IMG/VR virus record: IMGVR_UViG_3300032267_001142
Location: 122,106-186,105 of that record
Length of the DNA stretch: 64,000 bases
Origin: a virus
Direction: 5' to 3' (one strand)
Shown here: positions 5,081 through 18,901 of the stretch, piece after piece
Numbering within the stretch: the stretch's first letter is position 1
Layout of the letters: every line of letters starts with the position of its first letter
Made by a program: the position numbers and the translations under genes
The notes under the pieces: model-generated
The model's input: only the letters and a program-made list of their open reading frames with translations
Database searches by the model: none
Told to the model about the DNA's origin: nothing

Positions 5081-5174
5081 TCCAAAGTACACTAACTGGA
5101 AAGTGGCGAAGCTGTTAACTTCGTGCATCCCACCCCTGCGTGGTATCTAGGTCCGAATCCTAGCTTTGGAGCCA
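5081..5174 (+). tRNA. trnN: tRNA-Asn(GTT) with long variable arm
   Basis: TCCAAAG/CTTTGGA, loop CTGTTAA, ~23-nt variable region, G73-CCA. Confidence 0.8.
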
Positions 5175-5175
5175 C

Positions 5176-5742
5176 TTAACATTTGGAAGTAATAATACCA
5201 AGTTTTTTAGCTCTTTTGCGAATTCCTGTTGGGCTAATGTTTATTAATTCCGATATCGAATTCGGGCTGAGTTTTTGCACGACCATCATATCATACAGGT
5301 CTATTGACGACCAATCAAACTTCTCCCGAAGTTTGCACGCACAAGACCTCGAACAAACTTTGTAACCTACTGGTTTATCTGCGCCGCAGATAGGGCACGA
5401 ATTCATTTCTATCACTGTTTCCGGTCTATAGTTGACGAACGACTCATTAAACGCCCGAAAGGTTTCGGGAACATTTGCAACTCCGTTATGCACTTCTCGA
5501 TGACAGTTGGAACATAACAAAATACACTTTTTTAGTTCGGCACAAATCTTGCTCCAAGCTTTAGGTGACGACATAGTTTTACCAAACGAAAACTCTTTAA
5601 TAGATGGGTCTAAATGATGAAGTTCGAGCGCCGCGTTACATTTTTTGTAATTGCAGATTTGGCAGCATCCTCCCATAGATTCGATGATACGGATTTTGGT
5701 ATTTTTGCGCCACATTTTGACATGATTAGAATTTTTGCTCAT
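5176..5742 (-). CDS. HNH endonuclease
   Basis: CQIC...LELHHLDP...LLCSNCHREVH. Confidence 0.85.
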   Translation of the reverse strand: MSKNSNHVKMWRKNTKIRIIESMGGCCQICNYKKCNAALELHHLDPSIKEFSFGKTMSSPKAWSKICAELKKCILLCSNCHREVHNGVANVPETFRAFNESFVNYRPETVIEMNSCPICGADKPVGYKVCSRSCACKLREKFDWSSIDLYDMMVVQKLSPNSISELINISPTGIRKRAKKLGIITSKC

Positions 5743-5904
5743 ATATTAACAGATTATGTTAATTTACACCATTAGTGGTGTGATGTGAGGGTTATCTTGG
5801 AATTAGAGCCTATTTCTAGTAGCGACACTGCCAAAGCGTTGAACGTGGCCCGTCATAGTAACGGGATAAAGAAATGCGTTTCTCAACCGCTAGAATTCAA
5901 TTTC

Positions 5905-5980
5905 GGGGCATTAGTGAGAGAAGTTAGCACAGGAAGCTTGCACCTTCCAAGAGACGGCGCGATACCGTCATGCTCCACCA
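5905..5980 (+). tRNA. trnA: tRNA-Ala(TGC)
   Basis: G3:U70 pair, loop CTTGCAC, CCA. Confidence 0.9.
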
Positions 5981-5992
5981 TTAGTTGAACAT

Positions 5993-6068
5993 CGGAACGT
6001 AGCCTAGCAGTTCAGGCACCTGTTTTGGGAACAGGACGAGGCGGGGGCAGCACCTGCCGTTCCGACCA
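5993..6068 (+). tRNA. trnP: tRNA-Pro(TGG)
   Basis: CGGAACG/CGTTCCG, loop TTTGGGA, CCA. Confidence 0.9.
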
Positions 6069-6071
6069 TTT

Positions 6072-6158
6072 GGGTAGTTAGACTCGTAGAGTGCGAGGGC
6101 GGATTGTAAACCCGCCTCTGTAATGGACTGGTAGGTGCGACTCCTACATTGCCCACCA
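6072..6158 (+). tRNA. trnY: tRNA-Tyr(GTA)
   Basis: Loop TTGTAAA, long variable arm, CCA. Confidence 0.85.
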
Positions 6159-6164
6159 TTTTAT

Positions 6165-6239
6165 GTCCCATTCGTCCATAAGTTAAGACCGCAGCCTTTC
6201 AAGTTGCAGAACGCGGAGCGTTACCGCGATGGGATACCA
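6165..6239 (+). tRNA. trnE: tRNA-Glu(TTC)
   Basis: Loop CTTTCAA, T-loop AGCGTTA, CCA. Confidence 0.9.
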
Positions 6240-6267
6240 TTTATAAACGGTAGCTGATAACCTTGGC

Positions 6268-6386
6268 CGAGGTTTAGGCACGACCGAAACGAGAGAGACA
6301 CAGTAGCATATCTAGTAATGCAGGCCCCTAATTCGGGCCTTAACGTGGTGCAAATCCCGCGAGTTGGAACGTCCGTGAAATCCTCG
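6268..6386 (+). ncRNA. Unclassified structured RNA motif, copy A (tRNA-like insert)
   Basis: CGAGG/CCTCG and CACG/CGTG stems; 18-mer GGAACGTCCGTGAAATCC shared with 8821-8838. Confidence 0.5.
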
Positions 6387-6397
6387 ATAATTTTGAT

Positions 6398-6471
6398 ACC
6401 TCATTGGTGAATGAATATCACACAACCCTGTCACGGTTGAGTAACGGGTGTAAGTCCCGTATGGGGTGCCA
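6398..6471 (+). tRNA. trnD: tRNA-Asp(GTC)
   Basis: Loop CTGTCAC, G73-CCA. Confidence 0.9.
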
Positions 6472-6581
6472 TTTTCAATAAAACAGAGGCTATACTGTAT
6501 TAGCGACGAAATCGGAGCCGAAACATAGCGGAGGTTGCAAACTCCGTGGAATAACCCGTCGCTCATTGAAGAATTTTTAAT

Positions 6582-6658
6582 CGTAGTGAGGCTCGAACAG
6601 CATCGACACCCGCTTGATAGGCGGACCAAAGCAAGGGCAGCACTTGCCACTACGACCA
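6582..6658 (+). tRNA. trnI: tRNA-Ile(GAT)
   Basis: CGTAGTG/CACTACG, loop TTGATAG, CCA. Confidence 0.85.
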
Positions 6659-6732
6659 GCGGGATAGTGTAAGAGTAGCATATCAGTCTCATAAGCTGAA
6701 GACGCCGTTGCAATTTACGGCTCCTGCAACCA
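6658..6732 (+). tRNA. trnM: tRNA-Met(CAT), initiator-like acceptor; shares position 1 with the upstream CCA
   Basis: 1:72 mismatch, 3' end GCAACCA, loop CTCATAA. Confidence 0.8.
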
Positions 6733-6783
6733 TACAGTCCGTCGGCTATTCCTCTGCGCGAGCATGAACCGATGGTTAGTTTC

Positions 6784-6858
6784 GCTGACGTAGCCCAATG
6801 CAGAGGCATGAGGTCGAGAACTTCATTAGTGTAGGTGCGAGTCCTATCGTCAGCACCA
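6784..6858 (+). tRNA. trnL: tRNA-Leu(GAG), short variable loop, C33
   Basis: Loop TCGAGAA, 5-nt variable loop, CCA. Confidence 0.75.
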
Positions 6859-6870
6859 ATTTCAAATACT

Positions 6871-6945
6871 CCGCTCAGAGTGTGAAAGATAGCACGATAC
6901 TCTGTCACAGTATTAGAACGAGAGCGTTACTCGTTGGGCGGGCCA
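6871..6945 (+). tRNA. trnD: tRNA-Asp(GTC)
   Basis: Loop CTGTCAC, G73-CCA. Confidence 0.9.
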
Positions 6946-6989
6946 AAAATTAAATTGTCTAAATCCGGGTTTCTTGTGTAAACTATTGT

Positions 6990-7517
6990 ATGACAATCCA
7001 GATAGGACATCTCTACAATTCTCTAAAAGTTTTAGAGTTTTCTCACACAGATAAACTAGGCCACAAGATTTGGAAATGCGAGTGCTGCTGCGGCAAGCTG
7101 TGCCTTCAGCCCTCTCGATATCTAGGGAAAACAAAAAGTTGCGGATGTCAAAGGAGAAGCAAAAACATCAAAGGAGAAGGAGAGATATATGGTTCGTTAT
7201 TCTCTGGTATGAGATTCGCCGCCAAGCGGCGGCGCATAGTTTTCGATGTCTCTCCGAAATTTTTGTGGCAGCTTTTCCTAAAACAGGAAAGAAAATGCGC
7301 GCTTAGCGACCTACCATTAGATTTCGGCAGGGGTAAAAGAGGACTGTTCAGAACGGCCTCCCTAGATAGAATAGACTCCAGCAAGGGATACACGGAGGAC
7401 AACGTTCAATGGGTTCATCGCCAAGTAAACGTAATGAAGCATGAGCTTTCTTATCAGGAATTTCAGGATTTAGTAGAGAGGGTTTTTAATAAAGCCCGAA
7501 AGGATAAAAAACATTGA
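6990..7517 (+). CDS. HNH homing endonuclease-like protein
   Basis: WKCECCCG..TKSCGC N-terminus; SLDRIDSSKGYTEDNVQWVHRQVNVMK. Confidence 0.85.
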   Translation: MTIQIGHLYNSLKVLEFSHTDKLGHKIWKCECCCGKLCLQPSRYLGKTKSCGCQRRSKNIKGEGEIYGSLFSGMRFAAKRRRIVFDVSPKFLWQLFLKQERKCALSDLPLDFGRGKRGLFRTASLDRIDSSKGYTEDNVQWVHRQVNVMKHELSYQEFQDLVERVFNKARKDKKH

Positions 7518-7551
7518 CGTTCGCTGTAAAACGCGCTACTGTCTAAAACAT

Positions 7552-7627
7552 CGCTGTTTAGCAAATCAAGAGATTGCGACCCGCTGAAGACGGGATGAGG
7601 TCGGCGCGATACCGACAACAGCGGCCA
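7552..7627 (+). tRNA. trnF: tRNA-Phe(GAA), atypical C1-G72/G73
   Basis: CGCTGTT/AACAGCG, loop CTGAAGA, CCA. Confidence 0.75.
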
Positions 7628-7634
7628 TCTTAAA

Positions 7635-7805
7635 ATGAGAAAGTCTCACCTAGTCGAAAAATTGTTATCGCTCTCAATGAGCGAAGTTTTGAGTCCGAGA
7701 AATTCAAAATACGCAAAAGTAGGCGCATGGATAAGTAAACTCTCCAGCGAAGAAAAAGAAAAATTAAAGACTCTTGAGTCGAAAGACTTTAATCATCGAA
7801 TTTAA
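7635..7805 (+). CDS. Small hypothetical protein (56 aa)
   Basis: ATG..TAA ORF filling the gap between two tRNAs. Confidence 0.45.
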   Translation: MRKSHLVEKLLSLSMSEVLSPRNSKYAKVGAWISKLSSEEKEKLKTLESKDFNHRI

Positions 7806-7810
7806 GAAAT

Positions 7811-7884
7811 GTCTCATTAGCATAACAGTAATGCCTCTGCCTTCCAAGCAGAACATGTCGGGGCGGCACCGACATGGGACTCCA
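7811..7884 (+). tRNA. trnG: tRNA-Gly(TCC)
   Basis: Loop CTTCCAA, U73-CCA. Confidence 0.9.
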
Positions 7885-7893
7885 ATTTCAAAT

Positions 7894-7967
7894 GGGTTGC
7901 TAGCTTAAAAGTAAAGCCGTGGATTTTTACCCCACCTAACACGGAGCATTACCGTGGCGACTCTCCA
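7894..7967 (+). tRNA. trnK: tRNA-Lys(TTT)
   Basis: Loop TTTTTAC, CCA. Confidence 0.85.
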
Positions 7968-8015
7968 CTTCAAAGTTTTTCTGGAAACTTTTAATCCAGA
8001 CGTGTAATATACAGT

Positions 8016-8432
8016 ATGACTAAAATCTGTTATATGTGTAAGCTTCCGAAACCAGTCGAAAAGTTCGCCAAGAAGAAAGCGGCTAAAGACGGGTTGCAGA
8101 GTCGCTGCAACGAGTGTATGTCGAAAACGATGATACAAGTCTATAGGGATGACGTTTCAGCATGGAACGATAAAACTAAGTTGCAAAAAGGACGGAAAAG
8201 AGTTTGGGTTGACGAGCTTAAACAATCTGTTGGCTGTATAGTTTGTGGCGAAGAAAATCCTAGCTGTTTAGAGTTTCATCACGTAAGCGCCTCCAATAAA
8301 GAACACGACATATCACAAATGATAGTCAATAAAGCTTCCGACGAAAGGATTCGCGAAGAGATAGACAAGTGTTTGATTCTGTGTGCTAATTGCCACAGAA
8401 AAGTTCATAGAGGATACATCCTGATAGTATAA
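8016..8432 (+). CDS. HNH endonuclease
   Basis: CYMC..CNEC N-terminus; CIVC..LEFHH..LCANCHRKVH. Confidence 0.85.
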   Translation: MTKICYMCKLPKPVEKFAKKKAAKDGLQSRCNECMSKTMIQVYRDDVSAWNDKTKLQKGRKRVWVDELKQSVGCIVCGEENPSCLEFHHVSASNKEHDISQMIVNKASDERIREEIDKCLILCANCHRKVHRGYILIV

Positions 8433-8435
8433 ATC

Positions 8436-8509
8436 GGACTACTAGCATAAAAGTAATGCGTTCGGCCCTTACCCGAATAAATACGGAGCGTTACCGTGGT
8501 TGTCCTCCA
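8436..8509 (+). tRNA. trnK: tRNA-Lys(CTT), C33
   Basis: Loop CCCTTAC, CCA. Confidence 0.8.
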
Positions 8510-8520
8510 TTTAACAAATT

Positions 8521-8605
8521 CGCTCTGTGATGAAATCAGAATACATGCAGGCTTTAGATACCTGTGCCGAAAGGCGTGCAAGTGCAAATCTTGTCGGAGC
8601 GACCA
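8521..8605 (+). tRNA. trnL: tRNA-Leu(TAG)
   Basis: Loop TTTAGAT, variable arm GCCGAAAGGC, CCA. Confidence 0.85.
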
Positions 8606-8613
8606 TTTTATAT

Positions 8614-8687
8614 TGCCCCTTAGCATAGAAGCAATGCCGTGGACTTTGAACCCACATAAGTCGGAGCGTTACCGACAGGGGCGACCA
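8614..8687 (+). tRNA. trnQ: tRNA-Gln(TTG)
   Basis: Loop CTTTGAA, CCA. Confidence 0.9.
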
Positions 8688-8715
8688 ATTAAATAACCTA
8701 CAGAATATCGCCGCG

Positions 8716-8843
8716 CCCTCGAAAGCACGGCTGGTCTAACCAAAAGATGCGGCATCTGGCCGCGATGATAGATAGCGGGGTAAGCTCGATAGACGGCTGA
8801 ACATACGCGTTAAGTAGGCCGGAACGTCCGTGAAATCCGAGAG
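8716..8843 (+). ncRNA. Unclassified structured RNA motif, copy B
   Basis: CTCG/CGAG, CACGG/CCGTG and CTGGTC/GGCCGG stems; shared 18-mer. Confidence 0.5.
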
Positions 8844-8895
8844 TTTAATTTCATAAGGTTCTCTTCGTAAGTATCCTTTCAAAATACTTTCCGTG

Positions 8896-8969
8896 CGGTG
8901 CGTGAGTGTAAGTAACCTTCTCGCCTTGGAAGTGAGATATTGGGAGTGCGAATCTCCCCGCGCCGACCA
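8896..8969 (+). tRNA. trnP: tRNA-Pro(TGG)
   Basis: Loop CTTGGAA (A37), CCA. Confidence 0.85.
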
Positions 8970-9104
8970 GATTCGACGTAATGGACAGCCTACCCACCAA
9001 GGGGCGCGTTTGAATAGTCCTGAAAATTTATTGACGCCGCCACAAATCGGCATACACTTAGGTCATAAGGAAATCATGTGAGTTTCCTCGAACAAAGTAA
9101 AAAT

Positions 9105-9180
9105 GGCCGCTTAGCCCAACAGCAGAGGCGACGAACTCAAAATCCGTAAAGCGAGAGTGCGAATCTCTCAGCGGCTACCA
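9105..9180 (+). tRNA. trnL: tRNA-Leu(CAA), short variable loop
   Basis: Loop CTCAAAA, 5-nt variable loop, CCA. Confidence 0.8.
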
Positions 9181-9183
9181 TTT

Positions 9184-9388
9184 GCCCCTCGGAGGGATAA
9201 GTCCGAGACGAACCAACTAGACGCCGTAGTCACGTTACAATTAAGGACGTGATGGAGGCTATAAAGGTTTGATTACCAACAAAAAGATAGGGAGAATACG
9301 TCAAATATCTCAAGCCTAGTGTTGGAATAGTGCTGCGGAATCACCAGCAAGTTGAATGCATTGTTCGCGACGATGTTACTAGACCGAA
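9184..9388 (+). ncRNA. Putative structured ncRNA (~200 nt)
   Basis: Hairpins CTCGGA/TCCGAG, CACGT/ACGTG, AGGCT/AGCCT, TGCTG/CAGCA; no credible ORF. Confidence 0.4.
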
Positions 9389-9390
9389 AT

Positions 9391-9468
9391 GCCCCATGTA
9401 AGCACCTAGACCTCCCTTGTAACGAGGCATGACGATTGCGATATCGTATGGGGCTCCATTTTTTATGC
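9391..9468 (+). tRNA. trnT: tRNA-Thr(TGT)
   Basis: GCCCCAT/ATGGGGC, loop CTTGTAA, CCA. Confidence 0.75.
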
Positions 9469-9581
9469 AGCGGCGTGGAACATTGACACGCGGTATATCC
9501 TAACGGTGATGCCGGAATAGAAACGATATCGTTTTACGACGATATTCGAGCCAGCCTTAACTGGTCTGCGTAAAGAATTTT

Positions 9582-9656
9582 GGTTTGTTGGGAAACCGTC
9601 AATCCGCCCGCCTGCAAAGCGGGAGATGCCACGTTGGATTCGTGGACAAACCTCCA
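9582..9656 (+). tRNA. trnC: tRNA-Cys(GCA)
   Basis: Loop CTGCAAA, U73-CCA, T-loop TTGGATT. Confidence 0.85.
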
Positions 9657-9694
9657 TTATGAATACATAGCAAAAACAAAACTGCAAAGAAGTA

Positions 9695-9922
9695 GTGTTC
9701 CACTTCAACAAAGGACACCTCGCGAATCCCAACATCCCCATGTGGGTCGTGAAAGCGAAAGGCCAGTCATACTACGTGTCCCACGTAGTCAGCAACGCGC
9801 CTTTCTCCACCAAAGAGACGCCAGAAAATGAGCACACAAAAGGCTCGCTAAAGTTCAAAAACGTCTCTATAGTGCTTGAGAACGGAGTAATCACAATCTC
9901 CCCAATCGAAGGAGGTGATTAA
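9695..9922 (+). CDS. Hypothetical phage protein (possible TAG-readthrough start at 9659)
   Basis: FHFNKGHL..PMWVVKAKG..WS/FSTKETP..HTKGSLK. Confidence 0.65.
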   Translation: MFHFNKGHLANPNIPMWVVKAKGQSYYVSHVVSNAPFSTKETPENEHTKGSLKFKNVSIVLENGVITISPIEGGD

Positions 9923-9975
9923 AATGCGTTAGACTTAGTAAACAATTCCCCGAGGGCCGTAAAAAGCCCTCAACT

Positions 9976-10049
9976 GCTCGGCTAGCTTAATGATAAAGCA
10001 AGCCTCTCTAAAAGGTCGTATCTCGGTTTGAGTCCGAGGTCGAGCACCA
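9976..10049 (+). tRNA. Amber suppressor tRNA (anticodon CTA)
   Basis: GCTCGGC/GTCGAGC, GCCT-CTCTAAA-AGGT, CCA; anticodon 10008-10010. Confidence 0.75.
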
Positions 10050-10053
10050 ATTT

Positions 10054-10141
10054 GGGTTAATAGACGACTAAAGAGGTCGGCCAAGCTGTAACCTTGGTTG
10101 CTTAAATGCACATTTCGGCGCAATACCGGATTAGCCCACCA
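10054..10141 (+). tRNA. trnY: tRNA-Tyr(GTA)
   Basis: Loop CTGTAAC, long variable arm, CCA. Confidence 0.85.
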
Positions 10142-10146
10142 TACAT

Positions 10147-10221
10147 GGCCTATTAGTGTAAAAGTAAGCACGACTGATTCTCAATCAGTAAACCTCGGAG
10201 CGTTACCGAGATAGGCTACCA
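10147..10221 (+). tRNA. trnE: tRNA-Glu(CTC)
   Basis: Loop TTCTCAA, CCA. Confidence 0.9.
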
Positions 10222-10226
10222 ATTTT

Positions 10227-10302
10227 GTTCCTATGGTGAAATCAGAAATCATAGAGGCTTGCGAAGCCCCTGTTCCAGATGCGAGTTCTGGTAGGAACAC
10301 CA
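10227..10302 (+). tRNA. trnR: tRNA-Arg(GCG)
   Basis: Loop TTGCGAA, CCA. Confidence 0.85.
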
Positions 10303-10307
10303 TTTAT

Positions 10308-10399
10308 GGCTAGTTAAGTGGTCGAGTGGCCACCTTCAATTGCTAATTGAAAGGCACCCTTAAACAAGGTGTAGCGGGCGGGACGTTAGCTAGCCGCCA
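10308..10399 (+). tRNA. trnS: tRNA-Ser(GCT)
   Basis: Loop TTGCTAA, long variable arm, G73-CCA. Confidence 0.85.
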
Positions 10400-10406
10400 T
10401 ATAATA

Positions 10407-10595
10407 ATGAACATCCTGAAATGGTTTAGGCGCTGTCAGTGCTGTAAAAAGCGAGGAGCGACCAGACGCCACCAAATGACTCAATACGCGGACGAAGAGC
10501 GCAACTTTGCGACGCTCTGCCCGCCTTGCCAAATCGGAAACGATAAGTATTGGGAGGATATGTGGGCCGAGTATCGTTCAAGTCAAGGTATCTGA
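10407..10595 (+). CDS. Small Cys-rich hypothetical protein
   Basis: ATG at 10407 after the tRNA; CQCC/CPPC. Confidence 0.55.
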   Translation: MNILKWFRRCQCCKKRGATRRHQMTQYADEERNFATLCPPCQIGNDKYWEDMWAEYRSSQGI

Positions 10596-10666
10596 TTTTG
10601 CAGTGCAGAAAACCCGTTAATGGAGTCACGAGATGTTCGTCGGCAATAGAACTCCTTACTGCTTAT

Positions 10667-10742
10667 GTTCGCCTAGCTCAATAGATAGAGCACTACTTTG
10701 CGAAGGTAGAGGTTCCCGATGCAAGTTCGGGGGTGAACTCCA
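10667..10742 (+). tRNA. trnR: tRNA-Arg(GCG)
   Basis: Loop TTGCGAA, U73-CCA. Confidence 0.85.
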
Positions 10743-10748
10743 TTTAAT

Positions 10749-10822
10749 CGGAGGTTGATGAAACAGTATCATATTTGGCCTACACCCAAAATTCGCAAGG
10801 GCAGCACTTGCACTTCCGACCA
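10749..10822 (+). tRNA. trnV: tRNA-Val(TAC), C33
   Basis: Loop CCTACAC, CCA. Confidence 0.8.
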
Positions 10823-10875
10823 ATTAGAGCCTTGACGCCTCTTGAAAAAAGCGTAATCTCAGGGCTGTTCTTTAC

Positions 10876-10950
10876 GCCGCCGTGGCAGAATAGATATGCG
10901 CCAGTCTCCTAAACTGGTTTATGAAAGTGCAACTCTTTCCGGCAGCACCA
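10876..10950 (+). tRNA. trnR: tRNA-Arg(CCT)
   Basis: Loop CTCCTAA, CCA. Confidence 0.85.
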
Positions 10951-11016
10951 GTTCTCTTGAAACAAGCGCCGAGAAATTGCAAAGGCACAAAGTCTTGGAG
11001 TAGGGAGAAAATTTTT

Positions 11017-11093
11017 CGAGTAGTAGTTTATCCTAGAAAAACAGCCCTTCACAAGAGGGCGAAGGTGAGGCATAGGAACTCCCCTCTCGACCA
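11017..11093 (+). pseudogene. Degenerate tRNA (anticodon ACA or CAC, ambiguous)
   Basis: GCCCT-TCACAAG-AGGGC and CCA present, but acceptor and T arm are mismatched. Confidence 0.45.
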
Positions 11094-11097
11094 TTTT

Positions 11098-11172
11098 GCC
11101 GCATAAACATAGTCAGCGATGTGCTAGTTTCGTAAACTAGATAGTAGGGTGCGTCTCCCTAATGTGGCTCCA
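11098..11172 (+). tRNA. trnT: tRNA-Thr(CGT)
   Basis: Loop TTCGTAA, CCA. Confidence 0.85.
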
Positions 11173-11283
11173 TTTTGCAAAAAGAAAACTGATGCACCTA
11201 TGGTCAAAGGGGTGTTGTGAAAATCAGGGTGCGGCTTGCCGTGCGAAACACAGGGGTAAAAGTCCCAACTAGACCATCATTTT

Positions 11284-11358
11284 GTCCCATTAGTGAAACA
11301 GATATAACAATGCGTTTCGACCGCATAATTCCGAGTGCAAATCTTGGGTGGGACACCA
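11284..11358 (+). tRNA. trnR: tRNA-Arg(TCG)
   Basis: Loop TTTCGAC, CCA. Confidence 0.85.
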
Positions 11359-11495
11359 ATCGCTACGACCATTGCAACCAAACCCAAGTCTCACCGAGGG
11401 CGCAGCCAAGCAGGTATGGTGCAAATCTCCCTGTGCTGTGAGAGACTTGGGAAGGGTGCAAGTGCAACTCCCGCCTTGGCGTCCAATTTTTAGAT

Positions 11496-11570
11496 GGTTA
11501 CGTGAGTGTGATAGCCGCACTGAATTTTGTGAAAATTCCAGAATGGGAGCGAAACCCATACGTGACCCCA
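11496..11570 (+). tRNA. trnH: tRNA-His(GTG) with G-1:C73
   Basis: Loop TTGTGAA, 8-bp acceptor. Confidence 0.9.
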
Positions 11571-11635
11571 TCTTTTCTTTCTCAAATTGGAGTTTAATCT
11601 TGCCGCCGCTTGAAAAGTGGGTATGATTATCGAAT

Positions 11636-11710: not shown

Positions 11711-11714
11711 CTTT

Positions 11715-12373: not shown

Positions 12374-12380
12374 CTCTAAA

Positions 12381-12782
12381 ATGAAAATCAGAACCGAAAA
12401 AGTAATCGACTGCAACGATTGGGACAAGCTGGTCAAAGAGACTTACGGCAAGCCTTACACGCTTCAACAACAGAGAGGCTGTCACGACCGAGGCTTTTTT
12501 CGCTTCACAGTTCCAGAGGAAACTGACGAAGATGACTACGCGCACGACGAGATACCGGAAGTCGTCAACGACGAAAAGATGTGCGTCAAATTCGATAAGT
12601 GGTTAGCGAGAGACCCGAAGCAGGAACTCAATGCCGAAGACGGCTCTTGCCGAAAAGAGGACTGGGCCATTGATTTGTGGTGGTCGCGCAATTTCTATCC
12701 AGCGTTTCAGGTTGTTGCTAATGATTTGCACAAACGCGGCAAAATTGAGGCGGGAGACTATACCATAGATATTAACTGGTAA
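12381..12782 (+). CDS. Conserved hypothetical phage protein
   Basis: ATG at 12381; DWDKLVKETYGKPY..WWSRNFYP..DLHKRGKIEAGDYTIDINW. Confidence 0.65.
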   Translation: MKIRTEKVIDCNDWDKLVKETYGKPYTLQQQRGCHDRGFFRFTVPEETDEDDYAHDEIPEVVNDEKMCVKFDKWLARDPKQELNAEDGSCRKEDWAIDLWWSRNFYPAFQVVANDLHKRGKIEAGDYTIDINW

Positions 12783-12973
12783 TGACAGCCGAAGAAGAGT
12801 CCTCAATTAGAAACGCTATATCTCTGCTGCGGCGCTCATTGTGTTGTGACTACAATAACGAGACTTACATTAAAGTTTCGGAGGGTTACTTGGACTACGT
12901 TTTCAGACAGCTCAGAGCGGGACAAAAAGTTCAGCCCCACAAAGAGGCGGGTTTTGCGCTGGCAGGATTTTAG
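12782..12973 (+). CDS. Hypothetical protein
   Basis: Coupled TAATG junction. Confidence 0.45.
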   Translation: MTAEEESSIRNAISLLRRSLCCDYNNETYIKVSEGYLDYVFRQLRAGQKVQPHKEAGFALAGF

Positions 12974-12996
12974 TAATTACGGTGTTGATAGCGCGT

Positions 12997-13491
12997 CTAA
13001 TTACCATGAATAGACACAACACTACGGCACAATTTTAAGAAGTCGTCTAACGCCAAATCATTTTTAGCAACGTTTGCGTTTTTGGTAGTCAAACCCATAT
13101 TAGACAAGTCACAAGCGCCGCCTTTACTTCTTGGTACTTTATGGTCTAGTGAGTAGCTATCCGCTTTTAATAAGTCAATCTTTTCGCCTGTTAGGTAGCA
13201 GGTCGGATTTTCGCCAATAAACGCTAACGCATCCTTGAAGGAGATTGCAGGTTCCGCCTGCCCTTTCAATTTTCCGCCCATACTGAAAAATTTACCATAA
13301 AATCTTTGCAGCTTCCGTCTTAAAGGATGGGCTTTAGAATCGTACTCTTTGGCTTTCCTTAACGCGTAATCTCTAGCAGTTGGGCTAAGATAATATCGAA
13401 CACAAGCAATAGAAACCGATAGATGTTTAGCGATTTTTCTGTAACCCCAAGTTGGGTTTTGTAGTTTACAGTCAAGGACTTTTTGTTTCAT
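12997..13491 (-). CDS. HTH-HNH endonuclease (paralog of 14314-14886)
   Basis: WGYRKIAKHL HTH; SLDHKVPRSKGG..SNMGLTTKNANVAKND. Confidence 0.85.
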   Translation of the reverse strand: MKQKVLDCKLQNPTWGYRKIAKHLSVSIACVRYYLSPTARDYALRKAKEYDSKAHPLRRKLQRFYGKFFSMGGKLKGQAEPAISFKDALAFIGENPTCYLTGEKIDLLKADSYSLDHKVPRSKGGACDLSNMGLTTKNANVAKNDLALDDFLKLCRSVVSIHGN

Positions 13492-13537
13492 GTGATTGTT
13501 TACACGTTGCTAAGAATTTTGGGAAATTTAGATACAT

Positions 13538-13629
13538 GGTTCTGTAATGTAAAGTAGCATCGCACGTCTTATAAACGTGGCGCACTTGATTGGTGCCGGG
13601 TCTCAGTGCAAGTCTGAGCAGAACTACCA
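13538..13629 (+). tRNA. trnI: tRNA-Ile(TAT) with long variable arm
   Basis: CACGT-CTTATAA-ACGTG, ~22-nt variable arm, CCA. Confidence 0.75.
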
Positions 13630-13632
13630 TTT

Positions 13633-13708
13633 CGCTCCTTACTCCAATGCAGAGAGCGTGGTCTCAGAAACCGCGAAAGTGTCGTTGCAAGTACGACAGG
13701 AGCGACCA
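13633..13708 (+). tRNA. trnL: tRNA-Leu(CAG), short variable loop
   Basis: Loop CTCAGAA, CCA. Confidence 0.8.
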
Positions 13709-13718
13709 GAATTTAGAT

Positions 13719-13800
13719 TCCTAGTAAGGAAACGAGTGTAACCGGCGGTCTGTTAAACCGTGAAATAACGAGCTTCGTGCGACTCGAAGACTAGGAGCCA
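13719..13800 (+). tRNA. trnN: tRNA-Asn(GTT), extended variable region
   Basis: Loop CTGTTAA, ~11-nt variable region, G73-CCA. Confidence 0.8.
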
Positions 13801-13947
13801 TTTCAACCCTATTGAGAACCAATAGGGGACGGCACCCTGACAGCAACTTAATCAGGGCGCAGTAAGCGGAAGTTTAAGTTCTAACCGCGTAGCCGTTGAA
13901 AATTTTCTTCTTGCGTTTAGCGAGAAAGACTGTAAGATATAACACAT

Positions 13948-14031
13948 ACACCCTCTCCCAAGAAGGATTGGAACTCGTCTCCAAAACGAGAGTCATCAGA
14001 CTAAGCCGAGCGTTACGGCAAGGGTGTGCCA
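13948..14031 (+). tRNA. trnW: tRNA-Trp(CCA) with variable hairpin
   Basis: Loop CTCCAAA, AGTC-ATCA-GACT arm, G73-CCA. Confidence 0.8.
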
Positions 14032-14035
14032 CTTT

Positions 14036-14109
14036 GGGCTGTTCGACTAAAATTAAGTCACGAGTCTCTTAAACTCAGGAACACGGAGAATTACCGTGAC
14101 GGCTCACCA
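14036..14109 (+). tRNA. trnK: tRNA-Lys(CTT)
   Basis: Loop CTCTTAA, T-loop AGAATTA, CCA. Confidence 0.85.
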
Positions 14110-14184
14110 GCGGGATAGACAAGTAGTTAAGTCAGGGGTTTCATAAGCCTCCATGCATGGGTGCAAATCCCATTTCCGCAACCA
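14109..14184 (+). tRNA. trnM: tRNA-fMet(CAT)-like; shares position 1 with the upstream CCA
   Basis: 1:72 mismatch, GGGGT-TTCATAA-GCCTC, end CCGCAACCA. Confidence 0.8.
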
Positions 14185-14194
14185 TTGTAAATAT

Positions 14195-14269
14195 GGGCCA
14201 TTGATGAAATAGTATCATGCAATTCTGGCAGAATTGATTTTCGGGTGCGAATCCCGAATGTGTCCACCA
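14195..14269 (+). tRNA. trnA: tRNA-Ala(GGC), bulged acceptor
   Basis: G3:U70, loop CTGGCAG, CCA. Confidence 0.8.
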
Positions 14270-14271
14270 TT

Positions 14272-14363
14272 GGAAGCTAGGCGAATATAAGTTGGTCGCG
14301 CTAGTCTTGAAAACTAGTTCACTGTAACAGGTGAGGTCGGGGCAGTACCGACAGCTTCCGCCA
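14272..14363 (+). tRNA. trnS: tRNA-Ser(TGA)
   Basis: Loop CTTGAAA, long arm, G73-CCA. Confidence 0.9.
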
Positions 14364-14886
14364 TTTTGGATACTGAGTATCCACGGTGTATCAAAACTAA
14401 CTTACAGATTTCCTCGAACTCTTCTAATGTGGAGTCTGATTTTGCGCGATTTACCGCTTTTAGCGTCAAGCCGCAATTTGAAAGAGAATTATCTCCTCCT
14501 TTCGCAATAGGTTGAATATGGTCAAGCTCATAGGTTTTCGGCTCTAGTAGATTTATCGGTAGTCCCGTAAGATAGCAGATAGGCTGAGACAAGAGCTTGT
14601 CTTTAAGTTCTTGAGCAGAGAACAGAGAAGCTGCACGATTTCGTCCGCCCGCTAATCCGGCCTTAGTGCATCGCCGCCCCGCTATACATTGGAAATTATC
14701 CTTTTTGCGTTTCAAAATTCCGTTGAAATTCGCCCGATGCTTTCTCGTTCGTGCGAAGCTTCGTTTTTTACCTTCAGGATTCAAATAGTAAGCGACAGTA
14801 CTATAAGCGCAACCTAAAAATTTCGCTATGTTTTTATACCCCCATGTTGGGTTGGAGGTTTTACAATCAAGGATTTTTTGTTTCAT
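14314..14886 (-). CDS. HTH-HNH endonuclease (paralog of 12997-13491)
   Basis: MKQKILDCKTSNPTWGYKNIAK; ELDHIQPIAKGG..SNCGLTLKAVNRAKSD. Confidence 0.85.
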   Translation of the reverse strand: MKQKILDCKTSNPTWGYKNIAKFLGCAYSTVAYYLNPEGKKRSFARTRKHRANFNGILKRKKDNFQCIAGRRCTKAGLAGGRNRAASLFSAQELKDKLLSQPICYLTGLPINLLEPKTYELDHIQPIAKGGDNSLSNCGLTLKAVNRAKSDSTLEEFEEICKLVLIHRGYSVSKMAEAVGTAPTSPVTVN

Positions 14887-14938
14887 ACATGATTTTACAC
14901 GTCGCGTCACATTTTTTCTAGTATTTGTATCGCTGCTT

Positions 14939-15027
14939 AGCAGATTACCCGAATAAGATTCGGCCTCGCCTCGAAAGCGAAGGGCACCCCAAAAGGGTGT
15001 GGGGCGCGCTACCTCAATCTGCTGCCA
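14939..15027 (+). tRNA. trnS: tRNA-Ser(CGA)
   Basis: Loop CTCGAAA, long arm, G73-CCA. Confidence 0.85.
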
Positions 15028-15030
15028 TTT

Positions 15031-15121
15031 GGTAAGTAAATCATCAAAGTGATGACCTAAGCTGGAAACTTAGTGGCACCCTTAAAAAAGGTGTGGGATG
15101 CGAGTTCTCTGCTTACCGCCA
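15031..15121 (+). tRNA. trnS: tRNA-Ser(GGA)
   Basis: Loop CTGGAAA, long arm, G73-CCA. Confidence 0.85.
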
Positions 15122-15196
15122 CGCAGCTCAAAATGAGCTGCTTTTAGCCCTGTGGTGTAATAGAAACATATCTGGTTCTGACCCAGCAGACTCAAC

Positions 15197-15430
15197 GTGC
15201 AAGTCGTTGCGGGGCTTCCAATTATGCCTAGTATCAAAGAAAAGAAAGTCGCGTTCCTACTCGAAAGAGGCGCGGCGGTCGCCTTAGACCAGTTCAATAG
15301 GACTGTGTTGAAGCAAGGTGGCGCGTTTTGTCTCGTTGACGACTATGGCCGCGTCACTTGGTATACGAATAAGACTCTGGAAGAAATGCGAGTCATAAGA
15401 AACGATGCGAGAGTCGAGATTGAATTATGA
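15197..15430 (+). CDS. Hypothetical protein
   Basis: ORF coupled (ATGA) to the next gene. Confidence 0.5.
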   Translation: MQVVAGLPIMPSIKEKKVAFLLERGAAVALDQFNRTVLKQGGAFCLVDDYGRVTWYTNKTLEEMRVIRNDARVEIEL

Positions 15431-15684
15431 AAAGCATGCTCCGCAGTGTCATAAAGGCGAACAAGCAGATAGAAGAGGCTAGAAGCATAATTGCCAAGGT
15501 TCAAGCGAAATGCTCACACCCTGACGCGACGCTCGATAAAGTTTACAAAGCGGACACTGGCAACTGGTGCGAGCAGGACAACTCGTATTGGGCAGAACTG
15601 ACGTGTAACCGATGCGGCAAATTTTGGTACGCAGACAGCGTAAAGAATCCAGAAGACTACCGCAGGGGCACAGTAAAAGTTTGA
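15427..15684 (+). CDS. Hypothetical protein (zinc ribbon)
   Basis: CSH..CNRCGKFW. Confidence 0.6.
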   Translation: MKSMLRSVIKANKQIEEARSIIAKVQAKCSHPDATLDKVYKADTGNWCEQDNSYWAELTCNRCGKFWYADSVKNPEDYRRGTVKV

Positions 15685-15714
15685 CAGCTCAGAAAGTTTC
15701 GATATCATAAAAGC

Positions 15715-16131
15715 ATGAAACCAATCTCCCGTAAGTCCTTCTTTGCTATTTTTGTCGCCCCGCTTTTGGCTCCGTTTTTACCAAAAGCCGTTGCAAAAAT
15801 CGTTAATCCAACTAGCGAGCCAACCGCTTCAAAGGTTTTCCTTACAGCGACAGAGGTAACGACAAACAAGAGAATCGGAAGCGTGAGCTTTTACAGTAAG
15901 TATCTTGCTAACGGACGAACGGAAGTCGCCGATAGAGCGCTGGCTCTCTTAGTTAGGCGGGCCGTCGATAGTGGCGCGTCGCACTATGTCGTCACATGGT
16001 CAGATGCGAACGCTCAGCGGGCATATTTCCATGAAAAATTTAACATACCGCTGAAAAACCTAGACTCTATGTTAGGAAAGTCCGAGCACTGGCTGAGCCG
16101 AGCTGAATTCGAGACACAATATCCTCTTTGA
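15715..16131 (+). CDS. Hypothetical protein with Tat-like N-terminus
   Basis: ISRKSFFAIFVAPLLAP. Confidence 0.5.
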   Translation: MKPISRKSFFAIFVAPLLAPFLPKAVAKIVNPTSEPTASKVFLTATEVTTNKRIGSVSFYSKYLANGRTEVADRALALLVRRAVDSGASHYVVTWSDANAQRAYFHEKFNIPLKNLDSMLGKSEHWLSRAEFETQYPL

Positions 16132-16273
16132 TGCTCTTTATACCTTATTCCAACGATTTTTTACTTCAGTCTCGATGCCGCCTCGGCGGAGGATGTAAAT
16201 ATGGGAAAATAATCGAGTTGGATGCTCGTTTTGAAAACGAGATAGGAATTATAGTAATTCGATAACGAATTAT

Positions 16274-16350
16274 GTCCTGTGAGGGAGCAAGTTGAACCCC
16301 ACAATCTGCAAAATTGTTGTTGCACGGCGCGATACCGTGACAGGACTCCA
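16274..16350 (+). tRNA. trnC: tRNA-Cys(GCA)
   Basis: Loop CTGCAAA, U73-CCA. Confidence 0.85.
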
Positions 16351-16352
16351 AT

Positions 16353-16697
16353 ATGAAACCCGAAGCGCAAAGAAAAGCTATCATTAAGTTCTGTGGCTGG
16401 AAAGACATCTCCGATAGCTGCCGCTATCGTTTAATGACTTTAGCAGTGATTCGAGACGAGCGGATGTTTAACGTCCACGACCCTTTGACGGATTTGAACG
16501 CGATGCGCGAGGCGGAGAGGATGTTGTCAGTAAAGCAAGCGAAACTTTATGTCGAGCTTTTGGGTGAGATAGTTCTGGACAACGGGGGCTGTTACTTCAA
16601 TAAGAACAAATATATGGCATTCGTGGCTCTAAATTCCACGGCTGCGCAGCGCGCCGAAGCTTTTCTAAAAGCTCTTGGACTTTGGACAGAAGATTAA
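16353..16697 (+). CDS. Phage ABA-sandwich-like protein
   Basis: AIIKFCGW..DPLTDLNAMREAE..STAAQRAEAFL; similar to 27474-27839. Confidence 0.55.
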   Translation: MKPEAQRKAIIKFCGWKDISDSCRYRLMTLAVIRDERMFNVHDPLTDLNAMREAERMLSVKQAKLYVELLGEIVLDNGGCYFNKNKYMAFVALNSTAAQRAEAFLKALGLWTED

Positions 16698-16736
16698 AAG
16701 TGTTGACGTTTTAGCAAAAGAGCCTAGAATGTAACC

Positions 16737-17715
16737 ATGCGATTGAGACAGGAAACTCTCTCGAAAGCAACAAAAGGGGGCATGACCTCTTAGATAACGC
16801 GCCGCAAGGCGAAGAAAGGCTGAAAGCCCTACATTTTCAGCCGCCGTTTACGGTCACTTATGCAACCGTAGTTCCTCGGTTTACAATGCCAAACATTGTG
16901 GACTAGACTATCGAGGTTCCGGCGTCCCGAAAGGGGCGTTTCCAGACGTGAAACTCTGGTAAACGGGTTCAAACTTAAATAGTCGAGAACGAAGCGTAGT
17001 TGTTTATGTCGAGCCTAGCAAGCAAGACGCGAACAGCAGCCCAAACGGGAGTGGACTCGTGAGAGTTTATGACCGAGAAAGCCGTCGAAATCGCCGCTGG
17101 CGAAAGATATCATGTTGTGTTGTATTGGGTGGTCGAAAGGTCATCTAGCGACTGGACAGACGCAACATAATAGGGATAAGTATTTGGAACTTACAAGAAA
17201 AAGTTCTGTCCACGTTAGCGCGATAAGCAGATTAAGTCGCTGGCCTTCGGGCAACAGCGAGCGTTAAACCTCTCAAGGGAATAACGTTTGGCGTCAGAGT
17301 AAGATTGGTTGGCCTTTAGCGGGGTTAGCTGAGACGAAAAAACGCTGAGTAGCGCGACGGTTAATGGATATGCTACCATTCAAAAGCATCTGTGAGAAAT
17401 AGCGGTCGAAAGGTCGCTGGATAACAAGATAACACATACGTCTTGTAAAGGTTCTCGAATCGAAGCATAGTCTCAGCTTTGATAATTTGGTCAGCGGGCG
17501 AGCTATTTGAACGCAGTCGTTTGCAAAACTTCTATAGCAAGGTGAGATTCCTTGGCTGACCTCCATCTCATCAGTAGCGTATTACGCTAGTTTGGCTGCG
17601 GCCCATTGGGTCGCGAATTAAAGAGTTCGGGTTGCTCTGAGCTTAGTAGATTGGCAGGACGGAGGTAATAATATCCGCGCTTGTTAGTTGCTGGACGGGG
17701 AGTTAGCCCCTTGAG
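16737..17715 (+). ncRNA. Large ornate structured ncRNA (~980 nt; GOLLD/ROOL-class candidate)
   Basis: Own promoter TTGACG-N16-TAGAAT (16703-16730); no + strand ORF; dense GNRA/UUCG hairpins and long-range helices; abuts a tRNA. Confidence 0.7.
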
Positions 17716-17719
17716 AAAT

Positions 17720-17794
17720 GGGTCATTGGTGAAATAGAATCACGACGCACTCGCAATGCGTAGTCGAGGGTGCGACTCCCTCATGTATCCACCA
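17720..17794 (+). tRNA. trnA: tRNA-Ala(CGC), bulged acceptor
   Basis: G3:U70, loop CTCGCAA, CCA. Confidence 0.85.
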
Positions 17795-17899
17795 CAATTT
17801 TTACGTCGGAAACACAAAGAAAACATAAATGCCACTCAATATCTTAACTCTTTCGGTAGTGATGTCCGCGTTACTAATCTTAACTAGCCGCCGTATTCG

Positions 17900-18400
17900 A
17901 TGAAATTTTTCAAGAAAGTCAAAACCATTACCTCCAAAGAGGGCGAGCTGCACTTCGAGCGCTGGGCGATTTTCGAGTCAAAGTGGCTCTCGTGGTATAT
18001 CCACAGAATACACAAGGCAGACAGGGACCATTTACATTCCTATCCTTGGAATTTTCTGTCACTAATCTTGAAGGGCTGTTATCTCGAAGAGAACGCTTAC
18101 GATACAGCAGATGGAAGTTTCTGCACAGGCTTAAAGATAAAGAGCCCGTTCACAGTCACTTACTGTAACAAATCTAAATTTCATAAAATCAACACCATCA
18201 TCTCTGGTCCGGTTTACACGACGATGTTTGTGTGGGGCGACACCCAGAAGTGGTTTTATCGGGTAGGAAAGAAGAGAATTCCTTTTGAGGAATATCGCGA
18301 AATCAAAGCCGCAGCCAAAGAGGCGGGGCTTTCTATCGAGGAGTATATCTTCAAATATGAGATTGGGCTCTTGACTCCGTCGCAAAAACGAGTAGACTAG
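17900..18400 (+). CDS. Cupin-like hypothetical phage protein
   Basis: YIHRIHKADRDHLHSYPWNFLSLILKGCY. Confidence 0.55.
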   Translation: MKFFKKVKTITSKEGELHFERWAIFESKWLSWYIHRIHKADRDHLHSYPWNFLSLILKGCYLEENAYDTADGSFCTGLKIKSPFTVTYCNKSKFHKINTIISGPVYTTMFVWGDTQKWFYRVGKKRIPFEEYREIKAAAKEAGLSIEEYIFKYEIGLLTPSQKRVD

Positions 18401-18412
18401 TAAAAATCAAAC

Positions 18413-18799
18413 ATGAAATCATTCCTAAAACTTGCAATCATCGCCGTCGCGTCACTATCAATCGCTGGGTGCCAGCCAGAATCAGACGTAGCCGCCTATA
18501 ATGTTTCGCAGGCCGCGCATAATTTTGAAGTCAACAGACGAGTCGTGTTCTACAACGGCATCACAGGAGATTACATACTCACCATCGAGGGTCTTCTATC
18601 TGTGACGCCAGAAGATAAGCGCCTCTCGGTTATCGTAAAGACTGGGCCGAATCAGTATAAGAAGCACTATCTTGGTGTTTCTGATAACGTGACTTGGTTC
18701 TGCGAACAAATCGAATCCGTTCCAGCGTCGCCTTTTCATTATCGTGTCATCTTCCGTCCTACCACGATTATCCCAGATGTCGAAGTTAGGACGCGCTAA
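18413..18799 (+). CDS. Phage lipoprotein
   Basis: Lipobox IAGC; NFEVNRRVVFYNGITG..YKKHYLGVSDNVT. Confidence 0.75.
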   Translation: MKSFLKLAIIAVASLSIAGCQPESDVAAYNVSQAAHNFEVNRRVVFYNGITGDYILTIEGLLSVTPEDKRLSVIVKTGPNQYKKHYLGVSDNVTWFCEQIESVPASPFHYRVIFRPTTIIPDVEVRTR

Positions 18800-18817
18800 G
18801 AGAAGTTTAGTCAAAAT

Positions 18818-18901
18818 GTCGGTGTGAGTTAATGGCGAATAGCACAGCCTCTCCGCTTAAAACGGATACTTTTGCAGGTGCAAGTCCTGTCACCGATACC
18901 A
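18818..18901 (+). tRNA. trnL: tRNA-Leu(TAA), enlarged D arm, short variable loop
   Basis: Loop CTTAAAA, CCA. Confidence 0.7.

Follow-up and report, generated by a model that had tools for sequence, protein, structure and literature searches.

Variable-region hairpins on Asn, Ile and Trp tRNAs and short variable loops on Leu tRNAs in a dense phage tRNA array

The stretch of DNA analysed here, referred to as the window, comprises the final 64 kb of a complete 186,105-bp virus record (IMG/VR IMGVR_UViG_3300032267_001142), a genome of 47% G+C with direct terminal repeats. On its + strand the window carries a dense tRNA array (4.7-19.6 kb) with HNH endonuclease genes scattered among the tRNAs. In bacteria, long variable arms belong to the tRNAs for Leu, Ser, Tyr and selenocysteine (Sec). 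This restriction of class II architecture is broken in the array, where arms occur on tRNAs with the anticodons GUU (Asn), UAU (Ile) and CCA (Trp), while four of the five Leu tRNAs have variable loops of only 5-6 nt. From the sequence evidence set out below we consider it reasonably probable (about 0.65) that these odd tRNAs are working phage tRNAs, charged by host synthetases with the amino acid that matches their anticodon. Textbooks and a recent review (PMC9976931) hold that, outside animal mitochondria, Leu and Ser tRNAs are always long-armed, and they reserve long arms in bacteria for Leu, Ser, Tyr and Sec. Phage tRNA arrays break both arm rules on a large scale, and the window is a clear case.

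Variable regions in the window and their conservation

ARAGORN called 24 tRNAs in the window with default settings and about 44 at a relaxed threshold, and a covariance model built from 30 tRNAs of this phage itself (R1) gave 54 matches at E<=1, all of them on the + strand. Most array tRNAs have an encoded CCA, and the array spans nearly all amino acids. The general resources recovered much less: several of the odd tRNAs score poorly with general tRNA models, Rfam left all long-arm genes except Leu(UAG) at 8521 unreported even at E<=10, and megablast of the entire array against GenBank phages returned no match.

Variable regions longer than about 10 nt and folded into a stem-loop between the anticodon and T arms were taken as class II architecture, which is found in the Asn gene at 5081, the Ile(UAU) gene at 13538 and the Trp gene at 13948 (genes are cited by their first position in the window; Table 1). 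The variable region of Asn 5081 measures 23 nt (UGC-AUCCCAC-CCCUGC-GUGGUAU) and has a CCAC/GUGG stem that extends to as many as 7 pairs with one mismatch; the gene also has U1-A72, C2-G71, G73 and an encoded CCA. Ile 13538 has a 22-nt arm with a GCAC/GUGC stem and a 7-nt loop (UUGAUUG), together with a 4-bp D stem, a 6-nt D loop, G1.U72, A73 and CCA. In Trp 13948 the variable region is a 13-nt hairpin (AGUC-AUCA-GACU), accompanied by the T loop AGCGUUA, A1-U72, C2-G71, G73 and CCA. The second Asn gene, at 13719, has an 11-nt variable region without a stem, a weak D stem, U1-A72, G73 and CCA, so that the short (4-5 nt) variable loop of bacterial tRNA-Asn is absent from both Asn genes of the window. 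The acceptor/T-stem layout is 7/5 in all flagged genes. These values agree with the arms of about 23, 22 and 11 nt and the AGTC/GACT hairpin that the initial annotation had described. That annotation had also named introns as an explanation that would overturn its view. The intron reading was rejected, because the additional bases are located between positions 44 and 48, outside the anticodon loop, and form a conserved covarying hairpin.

The opposite change is seen in the Leu tRNAs, of which GAG, CAA, CAG and UAA have short loops, as had been noted, and only Leu(UAG) at 8521 retains a long arm. Leu(GAG) at 6784 has the Leu-type D arm GCC-CAAUGCAGA-GGC. In Leu(UAA) at 18818 the acceptor, anticodon and T arms are intact, and the D stem is preceded on its 5' side by about 7 additional nt; the gene was called as Leu neither by ARAGORN nor by Rfam and is supported by the phage-specific model R1 alone. 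Long arms are kept by all three Ser and both Tyr tRNAs, one of the latter (6072) having a mismatched closing pair in its anticodon stem. The initial annotation had spoken of an inversion of the two arm classes. Arm length is indeed uncoupled from amino-acid class in this phage, but "inversion" overstates the case, since Ser, Tyr and one Leu tRNA keep long arms.

Relatives were found through the RNA ligase gene at 19627-20262, which led to 17 related IMG/VR loci, and the whole or partial genomes of six related phages (G001-G006) were fetched; searches for related loci with the ORF (open reading frame) at 3872-4723 and with the large terminase gave no relatives. Variable-region lengths were then tallied over 243 tRNAs of this phage and its relatives, referred to below as the clade. 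All 14 ARAGORN-called Ser tRNAs (15-22 nt) and all 8 Tyr tRNAs (12-17 nt) are long, and 19/24 Leu tRNAs have variable regions of 4-8 nt. Extended variable regions occur in 6/10 Asn, 2/10 Ile, 3/10 Cys and 2/8 His tRNAs, and in one gene each for Gly, Thr, Trp and Arg. A nearest-neighbour comparison of stem sequences, which sought the ancestor of each odd tRNA, was informative for Leu(GAG) only: the nearest kin of this short tRNA, plainly homologous to it, are the short Leu tRNAs found in G001, whose elbow is canonical.

Two of the armed tRNAs could be followed as families. For Ile(UAU), one metagenome scan and one viral scan yielded 16 further distinct homologues, and in the resulting alignment of 17 sequences 97.9% of cells are paired and 15/25 pairs have changed on both sides. 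Compensatory changes are found in every varying helix, the arm included (3/4 pairs), and the observed values were reached by none of 500 shuffles. The D arm is invariant in all 17 sequences (AUGU-AANGUA-GCAU, 4 bp with a 6-nt loop), the arm loop is conserved (NAGAUNN), and A73, U72 and C4-G69 are present in 16/17, 15/17 and 11/17, respectively. A scan that left the anticodon free found UAU in all true members of the family. The subfamily of Asn 5081 comprises 13 sequences, in which 94.5% of cells are paired and 19/27 pairs have changed on both sides; its arm pairs covary, with the stem varying from CCGU/ACGG to CCAC/GUGG. All members start their acceptor stem with UCC, have a D stem of 4 bp and end the arm in UAU, and U1-A72 is present in 12/13. 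As these shapes are conserved across relatives they are not artefacts or products of decay, and the compensatory changes of the extra arms in homologous families place the arms beyond chance.

Long-arm genes of this kind are not confined to the relatives. A scan of IMG/VR for an Asn anticodon loop followed 18-33 nt on by a canonical T arm gave, among the 122 matches listed, at least 106 Asn(GUU) genes of 79-94 nt called by default ARAGORN, at least 101 of them distinct, and a scan for Trp(CCA) gave at least 74 genes of 81-92 nt, at least 62 of them distinct, among the 115 matches listed. In a collection of one genome per prokaryote species, long-arm Asn genes accounted for 16 among the 122 matches listed, and 12/16 stand in dense tRNA arrays. 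GenBank annotation contains a long-arm tRNA-Asn in the Aeromonas T4-like phages 31 and 44RR2.8t, and a search with a long-arm Asn tRNA of T5-like type hit 655 phage records in GenBank; in the T5-like Escherichia phage TrudiGerster (MZ501108) an Asn tRNA of 83 nt shares one array with a Leu(UAA) of 77 nt whose variable loop is 5 nt long. When Asn 5081 and a gene of the Ile(UAU) family were compared by blastn with GenBank phages, no match was obtained at E<=0.01, and a laxer blastn search matched Synechococcus phage S-CRM01 alone. In that phage (NC_015569, about 145,589-145,681; about 2993-3085 of our locus L416) an unannotated class II tRNA(UAU) of the family directly follows an HNH endonuclease gene, and 0.5 kb upstream of it lies an annotated 75-nt tRNA-Leu with a 5-nt variable loop.

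Metagenomic phage arrays contained further armed tRNAs. Next to a class II Ile(UAU) gene, one contig (L047, 983-1072, - strand) carries a 90-nt class II-shaped tRNA with the anticodon UUA, which would read the stop codon UAA. Arms were also seen on other class I isotypes, namely Lys(UUU) and Lys(CUU) of 90-91 nt, Pro(UGG) of 87 nt and Trp(CCA) of 93 nt (L050, 942-1031 and 3543-3633; L055, 744-833; L045, 1337-1423 and 3801-3893).

Codon meaning, identity marks and charging

We aligned the ORFs of the phage with those of its relatives (114 query-genome pairs) and compared the residues found opposite individual codons. ATA (281 sites) aligned with I at 0.45, L at 0.18 and V at 0.12, ATT with I at 0.43 and L at 0.16, and ATC with I at 0.40 and L at 0.14; the Leu codons gave L at 0.43-0.48 and I at 0.09-0.16. 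The result for ATA was unchanged when the relatives' own ATA codons were excluded. AAT and AAC aligned with N at 0.38-0.39 and S at 0.08, and TGG with W at 0.52. AUA, AAY and UGG thus have their standard meanings in the phage genes. At conserved sites roughly one Ile codon in four is AUA, so that a UAU tRNA has an obvious use in decoding.

The initial annotation had suggested that the armed tRNAs might be charged with an amino acid other than the one implied by the anticodon, leading to mistranslation or local recoding. This would be a striking outcome, but the present data lend it no support, as the three codon sets behave normally and each odd tRNA retains its cognate anticodon, discriminator and 1:72 pair. 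The search for synthetases elsewhere in the genome was likewise negative: at E<=1 the complete genome contains no PF00587 (tRNA-synt_2b, Ser type), PF00152 (tRNA-synt_2, Asn/Asp/Lys type) or PF00133 (tRNA-synt_1, Leu/Ile/Val type) core. A phage-encoded SerRS, AsnRS or LeuRS/IleRS was therefore rejected, and with no phage synthetase core of these families charging most likely depends on host enzymes. Bacterial tRNA-Asn receives its amino acid either from AsnRS or by way of AspRS and GatCAB, and the alignment of AAY sites with Asn bears on this only indirectly.

The arm is contacted by SerRS through its coiled-coil arm and by TyrRS through its C-terminal domain. We propose that variable-region length is constrained only in those isotypes whose bacterial synthetase reads the arm, and the pattern of arms in the window agrees with this known reading. 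Ser and Tyr tRNAs would keep their arms because SerRS and TyrRS read them, and most phage Leu tRNAs would have been free to lose theirs because bacterial LeuRS does not, while keeping A73, a Leu-type D arm and mostly A15:U48. On Asn, Ile and Trp tRNAs a hairpin in the variable region would be tolerated, given that recognition by AsnRS, IleRS and TrpRS relies on anticodon and acceptor end. The identity marks fit this proposal. All ten clade Asn tRNAs, both window genes included, have U1-A72, G73 and the anticodon loop CUGUUAA. A73 is present in all 24 clade Leu tRNAs, and 18 of the 19 short ones end their variable loop in U48; most of the short ones, those of the window included, retain A14, A15 and a Leu-type D stem of 3 bp. 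The four short Leu tRNAs of the window all have A73, A14, A15 and a Leu-type D arm, with U48 in three of them. For E. coli LeuRS the reported determinants are A73, A15:U48 and the tertiary pairs G18:U55 and G19:C56 between D and T loops, the long arm being dispensable and not an identity element (PMC9976931).

The arms of Asn, Ile and Trp tRNAs may have been inserted, or inherited when a class II gene was remoulded to a new anticodon. Some look inherited in this way, to judge from two Asn genes: that of L008 combines a Leu-type D arm (GCG-AAAUUGGUAGA-CGC) with the arm GUC-GAAA-GAC, and the arm of the G004 gene, GCC-GAAA-GGU, matches Leu arms. The acceptor stem GGUUCUU/AGGAACC is common to a long-arm Asn(GUU) gene from IMG/VR (L220) and the Ser(GCU) tRNA on a related-phage contig (L018, 8165), which suggests a switch from Ser to Asn through the anticodon in some phages. 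A discriminator common to donor and recipient would ease such switches, G73 from Ser to Asn or Trp and A73 from Leu or Tyr to Ile or Lys.

Several observations weigh against charging by host enzymes with the cognate residue, or against the simplest form of this explanation. The codon test gives the meaning of codons in genes and is silent on the charge of the tRNAs, because host tRNAs decode the same codons. Most tRNAs of this phage have an odd elbow, with G at position 55 and a D loop without GG. Nearly all array tRNAs (4730-19588) have T loops such as UGCRAGU, AGCGUUA or CGCGAUA with G at T-loop position 55. The window Leu tRNAs accordingly lack G18:U55 and G19:C56, their D loops, such as CAAUGCAGA, having no GG and their T loops being UGCGAGU, UGCGAAU or UGCAAGU. 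This elbow departs from the pairs on which E. coli LeuRS depends (PMC9976931), so that recognition by host enzymes is not to be assumed. The same elbow occurs in the metagenome arrays L050 and L055, while the related phage G001 has canonical GG and TTC, and within the Ile(UAU) family the base at position 18 of the D loop (A, U or G) changes in step with that at position 55 (G or U). In the Ile family U12-A23, a determinant for E. coli IleRS, is absent and C29-G41 is confined to some members. G73 and a hairpin arm, the two principal marks for SerRS, occur together on Asn 5081 and Trp 13948, and the conserved arm loop of the Ile family speaks against simple neutral tolerance.

It is this combination of G73 and hairpin arm that makes serylation, the example given in the initial annotation, worth weighing, in which host SerRS would charge the long-arm Asn and Trp tRNAs fully or partly and Ser at AAY and UGG would amount to statistical mistranslation or to sabotage of the host. 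SerRS reads both marks and disregards the anticodon, and allo-tRNAs with diverse anticodons have been taken as Ser acceptors on such grounds (PMC5389517). Among the IMG/VR matches listed, moreover, 27 of 101 long-arm GUU tRNAs have G1-C72 and many long-arm Trp(CCA) genes have Ser- or Leu-type D arms; one of the 27, L220, has the acceptor stem of a Ser tRNA. The window genes themselves differ: they have U1-A72 or A1-U72 with C2-G71, whereas all 14 ARAGORN-called clade Ser tRNAs start with GG (the window Ser(CGA), read by eye, starts with AG), and their arms are unlike the Ser arms of this phage, which are of 5-6 bp and leave 1-2 nt unpaired on the 3' side. They keep the anticodon, G73 and 1:72 pair that AsnRS and TrpRS would need, AAY sites behave in evolution as Asn positions and UGG sites as Trp positions, and the phage's own proteins would suffer from Ser at these sites. 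Serylation is thus quite unlikely for the window, and more credible for the G1-C72 genes among the IMG/VR matches listed. For the class II tRNA(UAU) the corresponding possibility is leucylation, with LeuRS accepting the tRNA through A73 and its shape so that AUA would be read partly as Leu, as with the nematode nev-tRNA-Ile(UAU), which accepts only Leu in vitro (PMC3333845). The tRNA has A73, a class II shape, A15 and U at the last variable position, its anticodon is one base from the Leu anticodon UAA, and its D stem (AUG/CAU) and T loop resemble those of the long-arm Leu(UAG) of this phage. We nevertheless regard leucylation as unlikely: the 281 AUA sites align like AUU and AUC and unlike Leu codons, UAU is invariant in the family, and the D arm of 4 bp and 6-nt loop is the same in 17/17 sequences, whereas a 3-bp stem with a loop of 9-11 nt is typical of clade Leu tRNAs. 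C4-G69, in 11/17, is a further point against it, and some acceptor stems of the family are AGGC...GCCU, which we take to be typical of bacterial tRNA-Ile. Even for the nev-tRNAs, mistranslation was undetectable in C. elegans (PMC4300185).

The odd tRNAs might instead have no role in translation, acting as decoys or sponges against host nucleases that target tRNAs or against modification enzymes, or might be decaying pseudogenes. The poor scores with general models, the aberrant D region of Leu 18818 and the weak D stem of Asn 13719 would fit, and tRNA arrays have been discussed as anti-defence devices (PMC12803027). With conserved anticodon loops, CCA ends and acceptor identity marks, all helices kept by compensatory changes, an array that covers nearly all amino acids and an evident use for a UAU tRNA at AUA codons, we rank this as the least likely of the rivals and give it little credence. 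A broader proposal is that phages keep a large, undescribed set of class II-shaped tRNAs (Asn, Trp, Ile, Lys and other anticodons) with dual or switched identity (Ser at AAY and UGG, Leu at AUA), or that the conserved arms are handles for a phage or host factor, through which the tRNA pool of infected cells would be deliberately altered or made nuclease-proof; this too we consider improbable.

Under the preferred explanation, working tRNAs with cognate charging, the conservation of the arm families indicates that selection probably acts on the arms. A plausible driver, and the one that we favour, is escape from host tRNA-cutting defence nucleases or replacement of tRNAs after their attack. We know of no defence system that targets what the extra arms of the window change, and the link to defence is one that we infer. 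Phage tRNAs are reported to evade tRNA-cutting defence in the case of T5 tRNA-Lys against PARIS (PMC11464382) and of T5 tRNA-Tyr against retron-Eco7 and Septu, where resistance is due to a distinct variable loop (PMC13096335). The PARIS study is concerned with tRNA-Lys alone, and tRNA-Asn does not occur in it. Should the arms indeed protect against such nucleases, they would represent a new layer of phage counter-defence.

Other features of the array and its surroundings

Table 1. Positions and calls of the tRNA genes discussed, in window coordinates (R1, phage-specific covariance model)
Gene	Length (nt)	Position	Strand	Call	Remarks
tRNA-Asn(GUU)	94	5081..5174	+	ARAGORN default; R1 11 bits (match at 5082)	
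second tRNA-Tyr(GUA)-like	87	6072..6158	+	R1 27.5 bits; read by eye	long arm, A73
tRNA-Ile(GAU)	76	6582..6657	+	R1 17.2 bits; read by eye	ordinary class I; coexists with class II Ile(UAU)
tRNA-Leu(GAG)	75	6784..6858	+	ARAGORN default	5-nt variable loop, A73
tRNA-Leu(UAG)	85	8521..8605	+	Rfam 36.2 bits; ARAGORN relaxed	13-nt arm GCC-GAAA-GGC
tRNA-Leu(CAA)	76	9105..9180	+	ARAGORN default	5-nt variable loop, A73, Leu-type D arm
tRNA-Tyr(GUA)	88	10054..10141	+	ARAGORN relaxed; R1 33.3 bits	long arm, A73
tRNA-Ile(UAU)	92	13538..13629	+	ARAGORN default; R1 20.6 bits	class II-shaped
tRNA-Leu(CAG)	76	13633..13708	+	ARAGORN default	5-6-nt variable loop, A73, Leu-type D arm
second tRNA-Asn(GUU)	82	13719..13800	+	ARAGORN relaxed; R1 32.4 bits, E 1.4e-7	
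tRNA-Trp(CCA)	84	13948..14031	+	ARAGORN relaxed; R1 16.8 bits, E 0.005	
tRNA-Ser(UGA)-like	90	14272..14361	+	R1 13.4 bits; read by eye	long arm, G1 G2 start, G73
tRNA-Ser(CGA)-like	89	14939..15027	+	R1 24 bits; read by eye	long arm, AG start, G73
tRNA-Ser(GGA)	91	15031..15121	+	ARAGORN relaxed	long arm, G1 G2 start, G73
tRNA-Leu(UAA)-like	84	18818..18901	+	R1 36.9 bits, E 7e-9	6-nt variable loop, A73, CCA

Further RNA genes accompany those of Table 1. A full-length GOLLD RNA (Rfam RF02032, 150.6 bits) lies within the array at 17110-17479, directly preceding tRNA-Cys at 17489, and the phage encodes a transfer-messenger RNA at 32004-32417 (Rfam 95.3 bits) with the tag peptide AKVKTAWSAFRNNLTVAFGSFSPVVA. 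Two tRNA-like genes depart from the usual form in their D region, an 80-nt CAU gene (19305-19384) in which it is over-long and a 71-nt Arg(UCU) gene (12303-12373) with a truncated D arm. At 9976-10049 there is a tRNA of the amber-suppressor type, with the anticodon CUA, A73 and G1-C72, which has counterparts in the relatives G001, G003, G005 and L018. Recoding of TAG was considered and rejected: this codon terminates 42/160 long ORFs, and in-frame TAG bridges (6) are not commoner than TAA bridges (17).

Genes for RNA ligases stand close to the array. Just upstream of the window (L003, genome 107.5-119 kb) are a T4 Rnl1-like gene, an RNA_ligase/PHA02142 gene and an ATP-dependent ligase gene, and a fourth RNA ligase gene (19627-20262) occupies the 3' end of the array. 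NAMPT and an NMNAT-Nudix fusion adjoin the RNA-ligase genes, and together these genes look like a tRNA-repair plus NAD-salvage kit.

Comparison with known systems

Within the searchable literature we found no description of the conserved class II tRNA(UAU) family, which is unannotated even in the cultured cyanophage S-CRM01. Arm-swapped phage tRNAs as a whole are a widespread kind, undescribed within the same literature, and are also present in model T5-like phages. They supply natural test substrates for the reading of arms by synthetases, in the form of armless Leu tRNAs and armed Asn, Trp and Ile tRNAs.

The closest parallels are the T5-like coliphages (Demerecviridae) and the Aeromonas phages 31 and 44RR2.8t, which, like the window, have a tRNA-Asn(GUU) with a variable-region hairpin (83-86 nt). 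In the T5-like array, again as in the window, the long-arm Asn has as its neighbour a 77-nt Leu(UAA) whose variable loop is only 5 nt, and the Ser and Tyr arms are long. The Asn tRNAs themselves differ, since those of the T5-like and Aeromonas phages have G1-C72 and a short GUC-GAAA-GAC arm whereas Asn 5081, with U1-A72 and its 23-nt arm, belongs to another subfamily; the T loops of these phages are canonical, in contrast to those of the window.

The nematode nev-tRNAs, which are class II with Ile (UAU) or Gly (CCC) anticodons (PMC3333845, PMC4300185), share with the phage family the pairing of UAU with a long arm and conservation within a lineage. They are, however, derived from tRNA-Leu and are charged with Leu in vitro, whereas the D arm of the phage family (4 bp, 6-nt loop) departs from the typical Leu form and AUA behaves as an Ile codon. 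The short phage Leu tRNAs recall animal mitochondrial tRNA-Leu and minimal armless variants of E. coli tRNA-Leu, which are recognised through A73 and tertiary elements (PMC9976931), but differ from both in being natural tRNAs used in the bacterial cytoplasm. Allo-tRNAs, known from bacteria and phages and suspected to be Ser acceptors (PMC5389517), likewise join a long arm and mostly G73 or U73 to the anticodons of other amino acids; their acceptor/T-stem layout is 8/4 or 9/3, as opposed to 7/5 in the window. The likeness to the defence-escaping T5 tRNAs lies in the principle that the phage copy differs from the host tRNA in the part read by the nuclease, which for tRNA-Tyr is the variable loop.

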